Virus record (IMG/VR): IMGVR_UViG_2648501563_000006
Coordinates: 1 to 37,917 of that record
Source of the DNA: a virus
Direction: 5' to 3' (one strand)
DNA: 37,917 nucleotides
The stretch's first letter is position 1. Each line of letters opens with the position of its first letter. Shown here in pieces: positions 18,088 to 26,541 of the stretch. The position numbers and the translations under genes are program-made. Below the pieces are notes generated by a model. The model ran no database searches, was not told the origin of the DNA, and saw only the letters and a list, made by a program, of their open reading frames with translations.

Positions 18088-18363
18088 ATGATTAAATTTG
18101 AGTTTTATGAACCGGCCAACTTACAACAACAAGAAATTGAATCTTTATGGCTACAAGACATTAATATGGATAATTGGGATTACATGTTATTTTTTGAAAA
18201 TGAACACGATTTCAGTATAGATAATGAAATATTTAAACTTGTTGTTCACCCGAAAAATTTCAACGTAGGAAACTTATTATCGGGTTGTTGTGCCAATATT
18301 TGGTATCCGGTAAAAAATTTCCGTGGTCGCAAGGGAATAATCGGTATTGCATATCATTCTTAA
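18088..18363 (+). CDS. hypothetical protein (91 aa)
   Basis: ORF track; aagga upstream. Confidence 0.45.
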   Translation: MIKFEFYEPANLQQQEIESLWLQDINMDNWDYMLFFENEHDFSIDNEIFKLVVHPKNFNVGNLLSGCCANIWYPVKNFRGRKGIIGIAYHS

Positions 18364-18446
18364 TAAAGAACAATTTCCATATTTGCCATAATAAAATATT
18401 TAGTATATCTTTTTTTCAAGGGATATTCGTTATATTTGGAGGCAAC

Positions 18447-20600
18447 TTGTCATTTTATTTTCCGCCCTGGAATAATGCTCTAGAACCAGATCAAGGCAAT
18501 GTCCGACAATGGTTAGATAATCTTTACTCAAAATTTCAACCGATCGAGCAATCACGTTGGAATCAAAGCAACATAGATACTTTATTCTATGCTGGATCTC
18601 AGACCTTTGTAAATAGATACTTTAATTTTAGTCCTTCCACAAGCTATCAACAGTACTATTTTAATTTGATACAGCAGCCTGTTAACATGATTACAGGCTA
18701 TCAAAGACAACATAGAAAATCGATTAATTATGTTCCCTCAGAAGGTGCTGATCCCAATACAACAGATCAATATACAAGAGCAATCACACATATTTCCAAT
18801 ACAAATGGTATTCATGAACAGTTCTCAAAAGCATGTGAATTATCTGCAGTTTCCGGAATGGTTTTATTGCAACCTTATTTAGATTATAGTGGTGATGATG
18901 CTGCTCAAGGAGAACTTAAACTTAAAATATGGGAATATAATGCCTTTTTGGTAGATCCCTATTTTAGAAGTCCGGACATGTCGGATGCTCAATTTGTATG
19001 GTGTCAAGAATATATAAGTAAAAAAGAGGCTGAAAATCGCTTTCCTGATAAAACCGAAATTATTACGCCCATGGCAGGGACGCCACAAAGATATGGATCA
19101 TTTTACTTCCTTCCAGAAAATTACAATATGGCTAGGAATGATCTTATGGTTCTGTCTTATGTATGGTACAAATGGAAACGTCCTAAGAAGCGTCTTTATA
19201 GTCGTACTAGGAACCAATTCTTTGATTTTGCTGGTGGAGACCAGAACTTAGAAGCTATTCTTTACAATATTCCTGATATGGAAGAGGTTACAGTTGAGAC
19301 ACCATGTTGGAAACTAGCTGTCGTTTTAAATGATCAACTCATGTTTCAAGGTGATAATCCTCTAGGATTCGATACATGTCCATTTATTCCTGTTTACTGG
19401 AACTATGAACCACACATAAACTACTATGATTTACGCGTTAGGTCACTTGTAAGGACTATGAGAGATCCACAATTTCTCTATAACTATAAAATCATACAAA
19501 ACAACGATATAGCCTCTGCCACAATCAATGCGGGATGGATGAGAAAGGTCGGTGCAGTAGCTAATGAGGATAATTTAAAGAAAGCAGGTCAAGGATGGGA
19601 TGTAATCATAAATGAAGGTTATGAATTATCCGATTGTCAGAAGATCATTCCTAGTGCAGTTCCTGAATCCGATCTAGCGTTGGCCCAACAGATGGGAGAT
19701 CTTATTTACAGCACAGCAGGAATAAATCTGGAAAATTGGTCAGGTCAAGATGATAAACAGACATCTAGTCTTACAGTACTTCTAAAACAAGCTGCTAACT
19801 TAATGGTTTTTCAGAAGTATTTTGATCAATGGGATTATGCCTTGAAGCAATTGGGAGACAGAATGCTTCAGATTGTTTTAAATAACTGGAATGCCGAAAA
19901 AGTATCTTTGCTGATTGGCGAGGAACCAACACCACATTTCTATTCTAGAATATTTGCTAAATATCAGGTGATAGTCGAAGAAGGATTGCTGACACCAACA
20001 CAAAAGAACTTCCAAGCTCAGCAGATGATGGAAATCAACGAAAGATTCGGCCGTGAAGTCATACCACCAAGCATGATAATCAAGGATATGAATATACAAG
20101 GTAAAGCTGAAATAATGGAATTCTTGCAAAAACAAGAAGAGCAAGCAGCTGCGCAACAACAAGACATGCAAATGGTTCAGCACGCTTTAGAAGATGCTAA
20201 ACTAAAAGAACTCTACAGTAGAGCTACAAGCAATTTGGCCACAGCTAGAGAAAGACACGGTAGAGCAGAAGCAGATATTGGCCTCTTTGAAGAGCGTCTA
20301 AGCGAGATTACACGTAACAGAGCTCTTGCAACTAAAGATAAGATGGCTGCATTATCTCAATTGGTTGAAACGATAGGTAAGTTCGGCGAACTAGAAACTA
20401 AAATGAAAATGAATGACATTGAACAATTTGACGCTCGCCAAGAAGGAAAAGAAGACATAGAGAAAATTGATGCCAAAAGAACAGCTATGTCTAACGATTT
20501 CCTTAGTGAAATCATGGGTAAAACAGGTCAGCAAAATCAACAAAATCCAATGCAACAAAATCAAGAACCCATGAATCAAATGCAAGAGATGTTAAGATAA
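18447..20600 (+). CDS. portal protein (TTG start preferred; the track ORF starts at 18285)
   Basis: ggagg lies 5 nt upstream of in-frame TTG 18447. About 717 aa, placed between terL and the scaffold. Long C-terminal coiled coil and a Gln-rich tail. Confidence 0.7.
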   Translation: MSFYFPPWNNALEPDQGNVRQWLDNLYSKFQPIEQSRWNQSNIDTLFYAGSQTFVNRYFNFSPSTSYQQYYFNLIQQPVNMITGYQRQHRKSINYVPSEGADPNTTDQYTRAITHISNTNGIHEQFSKACELSAVSGMVLLQPYLDYSGDDAAQGELKLKIWEYNAFLVDPYFRSPDMSDAQFVWCQEYISKKEAENRFPDKTEIITPMAGTPQRYGSFYFLPENYNMARNDLMVLSYVWYKWKRPKKRLYSRTRNQFFDFAGGDQNLEAILYNIPDMEEVTVETPCWKLAVVLNDQLMFQGDNPLGFDTCPFIPVYWNYEPHINYYDLRVRSLVRTMRDPQFLYNYKIIQNNDIASATINAGWMRKVGAVANEDNLKKAGQGWDVIINEGYELSDCQKIIPSAVPESDLALAQQMGDLIYSTAGINLENWSGQDDKQTSSLTVLLKQAANLMVFQKYFDQWDYALKQLGDRMLQIVLNNWNAEKVSLLIGEEPTPHFYSRIFAKYQVIVEEGLLTPTQKNFQAQQMMEINERFGREVIPPSMIIKDMNIQGKAEIMEFLQKQEEQAAAQQQDMQMVQHALEDAKLKELYSRATSNLATARERHGRAEADIGLFEERLSEITRNRALATKDKMAALSQLVETIGKFGELETKMKMNDIEQFDARQEGKEDIEKIDAKRTAMSNDFLSEIMGKTGQQNQQNPMQQNQEPMNQMQEMLR

Positions 20601-23226: not shown

Positions 23227-23457
23227 ATGTCTATTACTACTACAGGGAATTTAGGCCCTCTTATACTCCAGTCGCTCGCGCCTGCCATGTTATACGTGCC
23301 TACCCCTACTATGAACTATATTACCGTCTGCGATAAGGTCTCCATGCCTGCTAACGGCGGTACTACATGCAGATTTATGAGGCCAAGAGCCTTACAGCCC
23401 CCTACGATTCAATTGGGCAATGCCGGTATTGATCCCCCAGCCCAAGTTCCTCAGCGT
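23227..23457 (+). CDS. capsid exon 1 (77 codons)
   Basis: ATG follows gaggtttac. The exon ends CAGCGU, which pairs with the intron guide GCGCUG. Confidence 0.8.
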
Positions 23458-26400
23458 AAACGAGTTGCGCTGAATAAATCTTCGATAATTGACTTGGAAC
23501 TCCTCGCTGCTTAGCAGACGGAAGACAAGGCGCAAGCAGGGAAACCGTGCAGCGTGAACGACCAAATTCGAAGACCTAGAAATAGGATGCGATGGCCTGA
23601 ACATTATGGAAACATAATGAGGAAGAGCGAAATATCTTCCCGCCTCTTAATGAGGTCAAAAAAGTAACAGTATGGACATAATTGATGCCCAAATGGCGTT
23701 TTTCGGAACAGGTGAAGAAGTTTACTCGTATTTATTAGCTGCATAATTAACTTGATCTTTATATATAACCCATGTTAAAATCCTTGGAAAAAGGAGGATA
23801 ATATGGAAAGAAGTAAGGAAGAATTAATGTACTCATACGCTGCTGGAGCAATCGATGGAGATGGAGCAATTTATCTTGTTAAGGAAATTAGGTTATATAT
23901 TCCTTTTGTCCAGCTTGCAAAAAAATTTGGCATTTTAATTTCATCATTTAAAAATGATTTTGGTGGAATAGTGGGATCTATCAAACCTAGATTACCTCAC
24001 CATGCGCCATTACATTATTGGAGATTGAAAGGAGCTGAAAACTGTAAAGAATTCCTTGGGAATGTTTCACAATTTTTGGTTTACAAAAAAGAAAGGGCAG
24101 AAATTTTATTAGATTACATTGATAAAAATCCATTTGTAAGAGGAAAAACTCTAACTCAAGATCAGATGATTGAGAGAGAAAAGTATCATGTGAAAATAGC
24201 GTCATTGAATGATGAAGCTTATCTTCAAAATATTTCAATGGTTTCAAAAACATATGTTAACAACGAAGATCCAGCTTTTTGGGCATATGTCGCTGGCATA
24301 ATGGATACTGACGGATCTTTTTCTGTAAAGAGACAGAAAGGACATTCCGAAACAAAAAATCTTAGGTATATCCCCTGTATTCAAATATCAATGGCTTCTT
24401 TGGATGTAATAAATCACATAAGAAGGAATTGTGTTTATGGAACCGTGTGCGTAGTAAAAAACAAAAGTTGCTCACGTGGTTTTCATTATGCATGGAGTAT
24501 AGGTAAGAAACAGGATTCATCGGAATTTATAGAAAAAATACTTCCTTATTTAAAAGAAAAAAAAGAACAAGCTTCGATTGTCTTAGAGTTTTGCAAAAAT
24601 AGTGAAAATACTAAATATTGCAAAGCAGGAATTCCTAAAGAAGAATTGGAATTTAGAGAATCGTGTTATCAAAGAATTGTGGCTTTAAATAAAAGTGGCA
24701 GCCTGTTGTGTGATTCTCAATAAGGTTAGAGAACACATAAAACTTGGCTATATGCTGGAAACTCCTAAAACTATCGGTACCAAAGTGTGAAAATCTGATA
24801 GATGTAACAATGGACAATCAGCAGGGAAGGCTCGAAAGAGAACCCTCAACGACTACACGCCAAGGGCTCTGTAACCGCAGAAGTCAAGATATAGTCTGAA
24901 CAATGGTGAGAGCCATTGAGAGAGGAATAACAAGACTCTCCGCCATTTATAAATGGTCATAAAAGTAACAGATAGTGCATTATAAATGAACAAGTGATCC
25001 TTCAAGATCAAGAGGGGGTCCTAGCATGGGTCTCCGAACGTCTGGCCGTTTCGATGAGACAAGCCGAGGATTGAGATTAAGTCCTCGATAAACCTTTGGT
25101 AATTGACTTGGAAGGCTAAGGTAAATGAAAACAGAAATGGCAATGTTACCAAACGGTAACTATGAACAAATAATAAGTCCTATTCAGCATGCATGTATTT
25201 TTGAAAATTGGTGTTGTGTTGAATATAGATGGAAAAAAGGAAAACTTCTTCTTAAAATAGAAGATGGAGATCCTTACGAAGATGGTTATAGTTCTGAAGT
25301 GAATGTAAAATATTGTCCATTTTGTGGTTATAAACCAGAATGATTTTACTATGCCGACAAGGCGCAAGCAATGTAAAGCTGTTTTACATGTGCAGCGTGA
25401 GAGACTAAACCCAGAGGCCCGAAAGGGATGCGATAGTCCGAACATTCCAACGAAAGGGAATGAGTCTAGCAGAAATGACTAGACCATGTCGAAAGACAGG
25501 GTAACAGATTGTTAATTTTGCGCGATTACATTGTTTCAGCAGCCTCTACGTTAAATGCAGGTGGCGGCTCCAACGGTAGAATTGTTGCCGTTGTAAAATC
25601 AGACCTGATTGAGGTGGAACTCCTCGCTGCGTAAGCAGACGGACAACACTGCGGAACCCGAAAGGGACCGTAAACGAGTAAGGCGGTCAGACACTCGAAA
25701 GAGTGAAGCGGTACTCTAAACTCTATGGAGACATAGAGAGGTGGCAGAAATGATCACCCGCCTAGAAATAGGTCACAAAAGTAATAGAATGGATAACCCT
25801 ACTAATCTAGGTGTGAGCGACTTTTCATTAGTTGCAACCACTCTAGATACGAACAATAAAATGAGTGTTGTTCTAAAACCTTCTCTGATTGACTTGGAGT
25901 GCCTGGCTGCTTAAGCAGAGGTTAACAAGGCGGAAGGCGTAAGCCACCGTGAGAGACTAAGTGAGAGGGACGCGAAAGCGTATGCGATAGTCCGAACCAT
26001 GACTATATATAAAATCATGGAAGTTAGCAGAAATGACTAACTCGCTCGAAAGAGTGGTAACAGAATGGCTTATAAATTTATGAGCGGTATAGAAGGGATG
26101 GATAGATTTGGTACAGGCCCTGTACGTTCTGCATATTTTATGCTTACGTCAACTGAACTACAAAGTGACTTTGATTCTTTGGTAGGTCAAGGTTTCTTAA
26201 GCCAGTGGAACTATCCGACGCCAAATGCATCTGCACTGCCTTCTGAGTATGGATCTGTGTTTAACATCAGAATCCTGACAAGCTCTGAAGCTCCAGTTGC
26301 ACGTGGAACAAGTGCTAATGGTCAAGATGTCTATTACAGTACTGTATTAGGCAAACAAGCCATTACACATATTAACCAAGATGGTTATTCAATGAATTTG

Positions 26401-26541
26401 ATATATAGAGACCCATACTACAGTGGTATGTTGGCCCAAAACGCTACTCTTGCAGTTAAGTTTGCGCAAGCGCAGGCTATTACGCAAGATACAGCCATTA
26501 GAAACATTCTAAGTACCAGACTTTCGTCTGTAAACTATTAA
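23227..26541 (+). CDS. major capsid protein gene, split: join(23227..23457, 23675..23713, 24976..25071, 25512..25577, 25792..25857, 26068..26541), 323 codons
   Basis: The conceptual splice gives ...AQVPQR|DIIDAQMAFFGTG|CIINEQVILQDQEGVLAWVSERLAVSMRQAED|LILRDYIVSAASTLNAGGGSNG|DNPTNLGVSDFSLVATTLDTNN|AYKFMSGIEGMDRFGTGPV.... It reads like an HK97-fold capsid protein (N4 gp56-like by recollection). Placed after portal and scaffold. Confidence 0.8.
23458..23674 (+). mobile_element. group I intron I-1 (217 nt, no ORF)
   Basis: P1 is CAGCGU (23452-57) with GCGCUG (23467-72) and a U:G wobble at the cleavage site. GNRA-capped hairpins. P7-like GACCA (23560-64) / UGGCC (23593-97), with one mismatch. Ends gtaacagtatG. 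Confidence 0.8.
23675..23713 (+). CDS. capsid exon 2 (13 codons)
   Basis: DIIDAQMAFFGTG, in frame between I-1 and I-2. Confidence 0.65.
23714..24975 (+). mobile_element. group I intron I-2 (1262 nt) carrying a LAGLIDADG ORF; 5' boundary tentative
   Basis: The core lies after the ORF: a CTC-GAAA-GAG hairpin, then CAACGACUACACG (P7 5' strand, 24851-55) and AAGAUAUAGUCUGAAC (P7 3' strand, 24892-96). The three 3' hairpins and the gtaacagataG end are shared with the other introns. The 3' exon cannot extend upstream of 24976 because of a TAG. Confidence 0.7.
23803..24723 (+). CDS. double-motif LAGLIDADG homing endonuclease (306 aa), intron-encoded
   Basis: aaggagg SD. Motifs YAAGAIDGDGAIYL and YVAGIMDTDGSFSV. 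Confidence 0.9.
   Translation: MERSKEELMYSYAAGAIDGDGAIYLVKEIRLYIPFVQLAKKFGILISSFKNDFGGIVGSIKPRLPHHAPLHYWRLKGAENCKEFLGNVSQFLVYKKERAEILLDYIDKNPFVRGKTLTQDQMIEREKYHVKIASLNDEAYLQNISMVSKTYVNNEDPAFWAYVAGIMDTDGSFSVKRQKGHSETKNLRYIPCIQISMASLDVINHIRRNCVYGTVCVVKNKSCSRGFHYAWSIGKKQDSSEFIEKILPYLKEKKEQASIVLEFCKNSENTKYCKAGIPKEELEFRESCYQRIVALNKSGSLLCDSQ
24976..25071 (+). CDS. capsid exon 3 (32 codons)
   Basis: CIINEQVILQDQEGVLAWVSERLAVSMRQAED. Stops occur in all frames just upstream, and the frame ends in TGA just past the splice site. Confidence 0.75.
25072..25511 (+). mobile_element. group I intron I-3 (440 nt) carrying a 72-codon ORF in a hairpin loop
   Basis: P1 is CGAGGAU (25065-71) with GUCCUCG (25081-87). 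P7 is GACUA (25403-07) / UAGUC (25434-38). P8 is CCC-GAAA-GGG. Ends gtaacagattG. Confidence 0.8.
25125..25343 (+). CDS. intron-encoded 72-aa Cys-rich protein of unknown family
   Basis: taaggtaa precedes the ATG. Ends ...VKYCPFCGYKPE (zinc-ribbon-like CxxC), with additional Cys/His upstream. No GIY-YIG, HNH or LAGLIDADG motif seen. Confidence 0.5.
   Translation: MKTEMAMLPNGNYEQIISPIQHACIFENWCCVEYRWKKGKLLLKIEDGDPYEDGYSSEVNVKYCPFCGYKPE
25512..25577 (+). CDS. capsid exon 4 (22 codons)
   Basis: LILRDYIVSAASTLNAGGGSNG; the only open frame here. Confidence 0.75.
25578..25791 (+). mobile_element. group I intron I-4 (214 nt, no ORF)
   Basis: P1 is CAACGGU (25571-77) with GCCGUUG (25587-93). Hairpins CGG-AA-CCC-GAAA-GGG-A-CCG and CACUC-GAAA-GAGUG. 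P7 is GAGUA/UACUC, compensatory relative to GACUA/UAGUC in the other copies. Ends gtaatagaatG. Confidence 0.8.
25792..25857 (+). CDS. capsid exon 5 (22 codons)
   Basis: DNPTNLGVSDFSLVATTLDTNN; the only open frame here. Confidence 0.75.
25858..26067 (+). mobile_element. group I intron I-5 (210 nt, no ORF)
   Basis: P1 is GAACAAU (25851-57) with GUUGUUC (25867-73). Hairpins CGG-AA-GGC-GUAA-GCC-A-CCG and ACGC-GAAA-GCGU. Core strands GAGAGACUAAG and GCGAUAGUCCGAAC. Ends gtaacagaatG. Confidence 0.8.
26068..26541 (+). CDS. capsid exon 6 (157 codons plus stop)
   Basis: AYKFMSGIEGMDRFGTGPVRSAYFML...GSVFNIRILTSSEAPV...VYYSTVLGKQA.... The track ORF start 26065 (ATG) is the last 3 nt of intron I-5 in my model. 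Confidence 0.8.
   Translation, partial: AYKFMSGIEGMDRFGTGPVRSAYFMLTSTELQSDFDSLVGQGFLSQWNYPTPNASALPSEYGSVFNIRILTSSEAPVARGTSANGQDVYYSTVLGKQAITHINQDGYSMNLIYRDPYYSGMLAQNATLAVKFAQAQAITQDTAIRNILSTRLSSVNY

Follow-up and report, generated by a model that had tools for sequence, protein, structure and literature searches.

Evidence for a canonical P1 guide within the last codons of a LAGLIDADG endonuclease gene in a group I intron of a phage capsid gene

The stretch of DNA analysed here, called the window, is the whole of IMG/VR virus record IMGVR_UViG_2648501563_000006, a complete phage genome of 37,917 bp with terminal repeats. Its major capsid gene is interrupted by five introns, and the second of these, I-2, carries a gene for a LAGLIDADG protein. 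In an original prediction made from the sequence, the P1 helix of I-2 was described as non-canonical or unresolved. We conclude that I-2 is very probably a canonical group I intron, with its open reading frame (ORF) in the P1 loop and GCCUGUU as its guide. This guide escaped notice in the original prediction because of its position, about 1 kb downstream and in the final codons of the endonuclease gene. The elements of I-2 and its flanking exons are listed below.

23675-23713, + strand: exon 2 (E2), DIIDAQMAFFGTG, placed by tblastn with uninterrupted homologs
23714-24975, + strand: I-2, group I intron of 1262 nucleotides (nt), from Rfam RF00028, the homolog junction and core covariation
23803-24723, + strand: LAGLIDADG homing endonuclease gene, 306 amino acids (aa), two motifs, 89 nt past the 5' splice site
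24698-24707, + strand: internal guide GCA^GCCUGUU (GCAGCCUGUU), for P10 and P1
24708-18 with 24729-38, + strand: P2 hairpin, with the ORF stop UAA (24721-23) in its loop
24739-24742, + strand: J2/3, AAAA (AUAAAA from 24737), just before P3
24743-48 with 24859-64, + strand: P3, from the Rfam alignment and ortholog pair counts
24754-24822, + strand: P4-P5-P5a
24823-46, + strand: P6-P6a, then J6/7
24851-55 with 24892-96, + strand: P7, GACUA with UAGUC
24865-85, + strand: P8, then J8/7 AAGAUA
24901-57, + strand: P9, P9.1 and P9.2, then the tail ...GUAACAGAUAG to the terminal G 24975
24976-25071, + strand: exon 3 (E3), CIINEQ...RQAED, starting with UGC, the exon's contribution to P10

The end of exon 2, AACAGGU (23707-23713), forms the 5' strand of P1, with U23713 as the splice-site base. 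It had been stated that no G-initiated guide complementary to this end could be found; GCCUGUU (24701-24707) is a perfect 7-bp partner, with a U23713·G24701 wobble at the splice site. Directly upstream, GCA (24698-24700) pairs with UGC (24976-78) to form P10, which is only 3 bp long and contiguous with P1. Because the P10 bases adjoin the P1 guide, one 10-nt internal guide aligns both exons. GCCUGUU is the only G-initiated guide of at least 5 bp in the whole of I-2, and when the exon end was scanned against every 12-nt window of the intron, the same site gave the best duplex (-9.7 kcal/mol). A match of this kind was present in 2.2% of shuffled whole introns, and in 0.07% of shuffles when the 45 nt before the joiner were considered. 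In the sibling introns of the capsid gene, as in 23S rRNA introns with the 21-mer AACUUGGCUAUAUGCUGGAAA described below, the guide is located directly upstream of the A-rich joiner that precedes P3; in I-2, P2 alone stands between guide and joiner. Since the final codons of the LAGLIDADG ORF contain the guide, the ORF fills the P1 loop of 987 nt (23714-24700), which bears out the suggestion that it had been inserted into the P1/P2 region. P1 would thus be a long-range helix in which the AACAGGU end of exon 2 pairs with a distant guide, and P10 would bring in exon 3.

The boundaries of I-2 were determined by comparison with uninterrupted capsid proteins of the N4-gp56 family. These read ...FFGTG^CIINEQ... 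across the I-2 site (the caret marks the intron position) with no gap and no extra residue, and because of this reading the junction first predicted, 23713^24976, is correct. The intron follows GGU (23711-13) in phase 0, between capsid codons 90 and 91, and its removal restores the reading frame residue for residue. Its 3' end reads ...GUAACAGAUAG, and its last nucleotide, G24975, is kept in 7/7 orthologs. The original prediction had left room for a different 5' splice site. Were the boundary a few bases or codons away, another guide would apply, and a one-base shift (GG^G...A^GUGC) would indeed yield the same protein. Such a displacement is scarcely credible, given that the uninterrupted homologs leave no spare residues, that only 23713^24976 provides a U at the 5' exon end, a terminal G and a guide contiguous with both exons, and that all seven orthologs have this junction.

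To the 3' side of the guide, I-2 contains a complete group I core. Rfam model RF00028 matched 24676-24918 over its full length (model 1-253) with 76.9 bits, compared to a gathering score of 50 (E 5e-18), and among the five introns I-2 alone reached this model. I-1, I-3, I-4 and I-5 constitute a compact family below Rfam detection, unlike I-2. I-2 had been said to share the core and the 3' end of that family; its 3' domain does resemble the small siblings, an nhmmer profile of which matches I-2 at 24825-24976 (E 9e-5). When the seven orthologs introduced below were aligned, the P3-P9 core comprised 70 pairs, of which 16 were changed on both sides, and 99.4% of the cells were paired; 0/500 shuffles reached these values. 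P7 was invariant, P3 had a single one-sided change, and P2 had two pairs with compensatory changes, with 95.7% of its cells paired. RNAalifold paired the GCC of the guide with a P3 strand; this was rejected as an artefact because the exon is absent from the alignment, and a hand-set structure with pair counts was used instead. A second UAAAAUC-like joiner had been reported near 24798. The string exists, as GAAAAUC at 24792-98, and belongs to the stem and loop of P5a; the counterpart of the family joiner in I-2 is the A-run at 24739-24742. The 21-mer AACUUGGCUAUAUGCUGGAAA, which spans P3, J3/4 and P4 (window 24741-24761), was found exactly in more than 120 metagenome contigs (L116-L235), among which L210 was the only additional ortholog of I-2. 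The 21-mer is carried by more than 100 introns of metagenomic origin and, judged by their flanks, many of them lie in 23S rRNA at several sites; the core of I-2 therefore belongs to an rRNA-intron lineage.

We compared I-2 in seven orthologs (the window, L001, L002, L031, L035, L036 and L210), six of which bear the ORF and are 74-100% identical in protein. The exon end GGAACAGGT and the guide GCAGCCTGTT are unchanged in 7/7. In L035 exon 3 starts with UGU, and P10 still pairs there by wobble. Among 12 distinct intron-less alleles of the I-2 site, all three synonymous sites of GGN ACN GGN vary and none (0/12) reads GGAACAGGT, a pattern that fits a P1 constraint on the exon end. A supposed intron-bearing allele with the exon GGCACGGGT was dismissed as an unrelated chance match in L006.

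The guide lies in protein-coding sequence, so its codons were compared with others of the same ORF. Across the six ORFs there are 79 amino-acid-invariant codons for residues of at least 4-fold degeneracy, and 11/79 of these comparable codons (14%) are also invariant in nucleotide sequence. GGC AGC CTG, which lie over P10 and P1, are all fixed, which argues for RNA-level constraint on the guide. The Leu codon that follows CTG varies at its third base only, position 24708, just outside P1.

A natural deletion provides a further view of the guide. In L031 (2530-2875) the equivalent of window 23751-24675 (925 nt) is missing, which takes the promoter-like leader and most of the ORF and leaves an ORF-less I-2. 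The intron retains its read-through tail, its P2 and core, and the 16 codons at the end of the ORF that include the guide; the capsid gene is otherwise intact. This capsid gene is without I-1 and has an extra small-family intron after ...ITVCD (L031:2149-2367).

Several points weigh against a canonical P1 in I-2. Within the I-2 orthologs P1 is conserved with 0 compensatory changes, and common descent or homing co-conversion could account in part for the unvarying exon end of the intron-bearing alleles. P1 was absent from the pseudoknot-free minimum free energy (MFE) folds, both for an I-2 construct with the ORF removed artificially and for the L031 intron, which lacks it naturally; in the ensemble computed for the artificial construct, the outermost P1 pair had a probability of 0.10 and the other six pairs 0.34-0.45. 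We used the MFE folds neither for nor against the assignment because pseudoknot-free folding of group I introns is unreliable. Closing a P1 loop of 987 nt may be slow or dependent on help in vivo. Finally, the splicing of I-2 and its exact junction rest on comparative data.

Two alternatives were considered. The first is a two-step P1, in which a transient pairing between the exon end and the leader is later exchanged for the canonical helix. Because about 1 kb is transcribed between the splice site and the guide, an interim structure of the exon end is likely, and the MFE fold of the artificial construct pairs the exon end with the first intron bases. The orthologs, however, conserve no stretch of the leader that would pair with the exon end, and the ORF-less L031 copy manages without most of the leader; we regard this scheme as quite unlikely. 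The second is that I-2 is a decaying insertion that does not splice, in a defective capsid gene. Five introns in one 972-nt coding sequence are a heavy load, and the comparative basis of the splicing leaves some room for such a view. Decay is nevertheless hard to believe of an element in which the core helices covary and are almost fully paired, the guide codons are under RNA-level constraint and the intact ORF still encodes the catalytic Asp residues, in a gene whose exons are all intact and about 90% identical to uninterrupted homologs, on a record that is a complete genome with terminal repeats. Judged from its sequence, I-2 is probably self-splicing.

The product of the 306-codon ORF is, by sequence and predicted fold, a two-motif monomeric LAGLIDADG homing endonuclease, and the double-motif ORF placed about 90 nt past the 5' splice site in the original prediction was confirmed. 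Pfam PF00961 (LAGLIDADG_1) scored 28.1 bits with a cutoff of 23.1. The motifs are YAAGAIDGDG and YVAGIMDTDG; in 46 homologs D20 of the first and D168 of the second are invariant, and D170 is conserved in at least 90%. The AlphaFold2 (AF2) model (predicted local distance difference test 91, predicted template modelling (TM) score 0.90) has a pseudo-dimeric alpha-beta-beta-alpha-beta-beta-alpha fold. Its top Foldseek matches are single-chain I-MsoI and I-CreI derivatives (E 1e-14, TM up to 0.72), followed by I-SmaMI, I-OnuI and I-PanMI (E about 1e-11 to 1e-10, TM about 0.5-0.7); by sequence, the PDB matches belong to the I-CreI family, the best again being I-MsoI and I-CreI derivatives. The last 26 nt of the ORF overlap P10, P1 and P2, so that the codons for the C-terminus (GSLLCDSQ and the stop) also supply P10, P1 and the 5' half of P2, with the stop codon in the P2 loop. 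A profile search of viral contigs gave 171 endonuclease relatives, of which 79 were retained, indicating that the family is abundant there; most of the relatives examined lie within the same capsid gene family. One 311-aa homolog with 68% identity (L034:2501-3436) is encoded on a contig of 118 kb that also has cellular genes, GAPDH among them; it is followed by no intron core, is without the guide-encoding C-terminal codons and appears to be free-standing.

The 89 nt between the 5' splice site and the ORF have features of their own.

23752-23781, + strand: sigma-70-like promoter for the endonuclease, inferred from a consensus scan
23782-23797, + strand: hairpin CCUU(GGAAA)AAGG, overlapping the Shine-Dalgarno sequence AAGGAGG (23791-97)

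The scan identified TTGATC-18-TAAAAT with TG before the -10, that is, a -35 box TTGATC (23752-57), an 18-nt spacer and a TG-extended -10, TGTTAAAAT (23773-81). The 5' leaders of the I-2 orthologs were aligned to leaders from distant cassettes whose insertion sites have other exon ends. A common order emerged: an in-frame tail with its stop, a -35 box (TTGATC or TTGTGC), a spacer of 17-18 nt, a TG-extended -10 (TAAAAT or TATAAT), a covarying hairpin over the Shine-Dalgarno sequence, and then ATG. The hairpin arms read CCUAGA and UCUAGG in L035, CCUG and CAGG in L036, CCAG and CUGG in L002, and CCUGG and CCAGG in L065. The promoter and hairpin functions are inferred from these patterns. In the long capsid pre-mRNA the hairpin would keep ribosomes off the ORF and so allow P1 to form, while RNAs started at the internal promoter would begin just past the 5' arm of the hairpin and would be translatable. 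The Shine-Dalgarno sequence would be masked in the long pre-mRNA only, because a start about 7 nt after the -10 would fall past the 5' arm. The leader order suggests that expression of the endonuclease is under separate control, as for I-TevI in the T4 td intron.

The leader also contains the strings that had been put forward as guides pairing the splice-site U with A, namely ACUUG (23750-54) and ACC..UGUU (23769-77), for a weak, non-canonical P1 that the LAGLIDADG protein might assist as a maturase. Both strings are present and can pair with CAGGU or AACAGGU, either over 5 bp or with a bulge; scanning from 23748 gave a site of -5.6 kcal/mol, and maturases are known among LAGLIDADG proteins (PMC3984707). 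ACUUG, however, belongs to the putative -35 box, ACC..UGUU and 'UAAAAUC' to the extended -10, and CCUUGG is the 5' arm of the hairpin. The boxes are conserved where exon ends are AGACCCU, AAGAGGGU or GACCUU, and the strings vary among the I-2 orthologs (CAACGUGUU in L001, AUUUG in L002 and L036). The leader strings are not guides for AACAGGU, because the boxes are conserved whatever the exon sequence and both strings are deleted in the ORF-less L031 intron. With a far better canonical guide available in GCCUGUU, we consider an A-pairing P1 very unlikely. The proposed weak P1 gives way to a 7-bp P1, adjoined by a 3-bp P10, that is invariant in seven orthologs, has fixed codons and is kept in L031. 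As for maturase help, no helix was found to be missing or defective, P1, P10, P2 and the core helices all being in place and conserved; nothing in the RNA calls for a maturase, because canonical P1 and P10 are present and an ORF-less copy persists in an intact gene. The pre-ORF CCUUGG (23782-87), which is complementary to GCCAAGG, was considered as an alternative P3 strand and rejected, being unconserved in L001, L002 and L036, deleted in L031, and covariant with the Shine-Dalgarno region.

In relatives of the endonuclease cassette at four other capsid sites, the guide changes together with the exon. In copies that we call type a, protein homology gives the 5' splice site independently, and the ORF lies between that site and a guide that matches the local exon. 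The exon ends and guides were as follows.

AGACCCU, guide GGGGUCU: many loci
GGAUCCU, guide GGGAUCU: L060
AGACCUU, guide GAGGUCU: L065
ACAGGUU, guide GACCUGU: L099, L100

With I-2 there are five distinct, independent exon/guide pairs, and the pair of L060 is a compensatory change relative to AGACCCU with GGGGUCU. A random-pairing control of the loci was not clean, many loci having near-identical exon ends, and the weight is placed on the five distinct pairs. The C-terminal Gly-Ser of the endonuclease is encoded by GGC AGC where the exon ends in AACAGGU (24697-24705) and by GGG UCU at the main other site, where it ends in AGACCCU (L056:2386-2400 and similar loci). Because Ser codons are six-fold degenerate, the guide can be retargeted without a change to the protein.

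In relatives, several different intron forms are found at one hot spot of the capsid gene, located after residue 103 (QDP^V or QEG^V). At QDQEG^VLAW, many relatives have elements of 946-987 nt (L042:2417-3391, L078:2445-3390 and 12 similar loci) that consist of a leader, the ORF and a P10 and P1 guide, AACAC^GCCCUCUU; the 5' exon ends in U, only 17-22 nt separate the guide from the (A/U)UG^ 3' end, and P10 covaries. An ORF-less version of 49 nt is found at L004:7580-7628. The profile of the small intron family detected no P3-P9 core inside these elements. The same profile gave a core match on one or both sides of the element in every such locus, and in the three loci that were read through (L042, L078 and L004) a complete intron starts about 55 nt downstream. 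From their sequences, these elements look like core-less introns that borrow the ribozyme of a neighbour. None occurs in the window.

The frame of exon 2 continues into I-2.

23714-23746, + strand: in-frame read-through of exon 2, EEVYSYLLAA, then UAA (23744-46)

This tail of 10 residues is kept in the I-2 orthologs, 6/7 of which end in [LI]AA. The sibling tails end in ...ELLAA in I-1 (23458-23514) and I-4 (25578-25634) and in ...ECLAA in I-5 (25858-25914); in I-3 a stop codon follows immediately after the exon frame enters. In a set of 45 distinct cassettes of related endonucleases, which occupy five insertion sites, tails ending in Ala numbered 31 in frame, 4 in frame +1 and 0 in frame +2; the counts were 22, 0 and 0 for Ala-Ala, and 21, 0 and 0 for [LIVM]-Ala-Ala. 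Nine different spellings of codons and stop encode these tails. A tentative reading, which we prefer although it is somewhat doubtful in our own estimate, is that the tail does more than halt ribosomes and acts as an ssrA-like Leu-Ala-Ala degron on the capsid fragment made from unspliced mRNA. If so, ClpXP-type host proteases would clear a truncated capsid protein that could poison assembly. A full-text literature search gave no paper that proposes an ssrA-like degron on such tails.

The exon and intron limits of the capsid gene were set by tblastn alignment of uninterrupted homologs of 321-323 aa to the window. There are hundreds of these homologs, about 90% identical and annotated by some sources as N4-gp56 family capsid proteins. 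The gene comprises six exons and five introns, all in phase 0, with a coding sequence of 972 nt. Besides those listed above, the features of the region are as follows.

18285-20600: P22-type portal gene
23227-26541: major capsid gene, start to end
23227-23457: exon 1 (E1)
23458-23674: I-1, exon end CAGCGU^, guide GCGCUG
25072-25511: I-3, exon end GAGGAU^, guide GUCCUC
25512-25577: exon 4 (E4)
25578-25791: I-4, exon end AACGGU^, guide GCCGUU
25792-25857: exon 5 (E5)
25858-26067: I-5, exon end GAACAAU^, guide GUUGUUC
26068-26541: exon 6 (E6)

The four sibling introns have the same guide layout as I-2 but short P1 loops, and in each a UAAAYC-type joiner lies immediately 3' of the guide. I-3 contains a Cys-rich ORF of 72 aa (25125-25343), whose sole match is a sub-threshold one to DUF6980. 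A 217-aa ORF after the portal gene is taken to be the scaffold gene. Megablast and tblastn searches of cultured phages found no close relative, the top match being a Pseudoalteromonas phage capsid protein with 23% identity.

Several known introns resemble I-2 in part. The layout of an ORF in P1 that overlaps P1 and P2 is already published (PMC3073962), and endonuclease genes in P1 are on record for nuclear rDNA introns (PMC3679873). One such case, the tRNA-fMet intron of Synechocystis PCC 6803, has its ORF in P1 with a 61-nt overlap with P1 and P2, an arrangement termed 'core creep' (PMC3073962, Table 1). I-2 shows this arrangement, with the ORF at 23803-24723, the guide at 24698-24707 and the stop codon in the P2 loop, and the four exon/guide pairs of relatives are alike; in both introns the 3' end of the ORF runs over P1 and P2 and the guide lies within coding sequence. 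The Synechocystis intron encodes a PD-(D/E)XK enzyme in a cyanobacterial tRNA gene, whereas I-2 encodes a LAGLIDADG enzyme in a phage capsid gene with an overlap of 26 nt. In Physarum polycephalum L1925, with I-PpoI, and in other nuclear rDNA introns, the endonuclease gene is likewise in P1, upstream of the core (PMC3073962, PMC3679873); these differ from I-2 in having a His-Cys box enzyme, nuclear rDNA as host and no overlap with the core. The bacterial and organellar group I introns of 23S rRNA with enzymes of the I-CreI family (I-CreI, I-MsoI, I-CvuI) are linked to I-2 by the 21-mer AACUUGGCUAUAUGCUGGAAA, common to many 23S rRNA introns and I-2, and by the best PDB matches of the endonuclease, I-MsoI and I-CreI derivatives. 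I-CreI-family enzymes are one-motif homodimers in rRNA host genes, whereas the I-2 enzyme is a two-motif monomer.

Among phage introns GIY-YIG or HNH genes are commoner than LAGLIDADG genes, as the original prediction stated and PMC3984707 agrees. The T4 td intron with I-TevI resembles I-2 in interrupting a phage protein gene, in having the 3' end of its ORF in ribozyme helices and in a hairpin that masks the ribosome-binding site (PMC3073962). The two also have in common an in-frame stop soon after the 5' splice site and a likely internal promoter. They differ in that the td intron has a GIY-YIG enzyme in the P6 loop, a stop directly after the splice site and no Ala-Ala tail. Details of promoter use in the T4 td intron and I-TevI are reportedly given by Gott et al. 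(1988).

The outcome for I-2 is a correction: its P1 is not unusual and it has no need of a maturase. The Ala-Ala read-through tails and the core-less introns with P1 and P10 only go beyond anything that we found described. For annotators, the case indicates that a guide should be looked for downstream of an intron ORF, beyond the neighbourhood of the splice site. The ORF-less L031 copy maps the minimal intron naturally, and the locus is a clean natural example of dual coding, in which the same nucleotides specify the C-terminus of an endonuclease and the guide of its intron.

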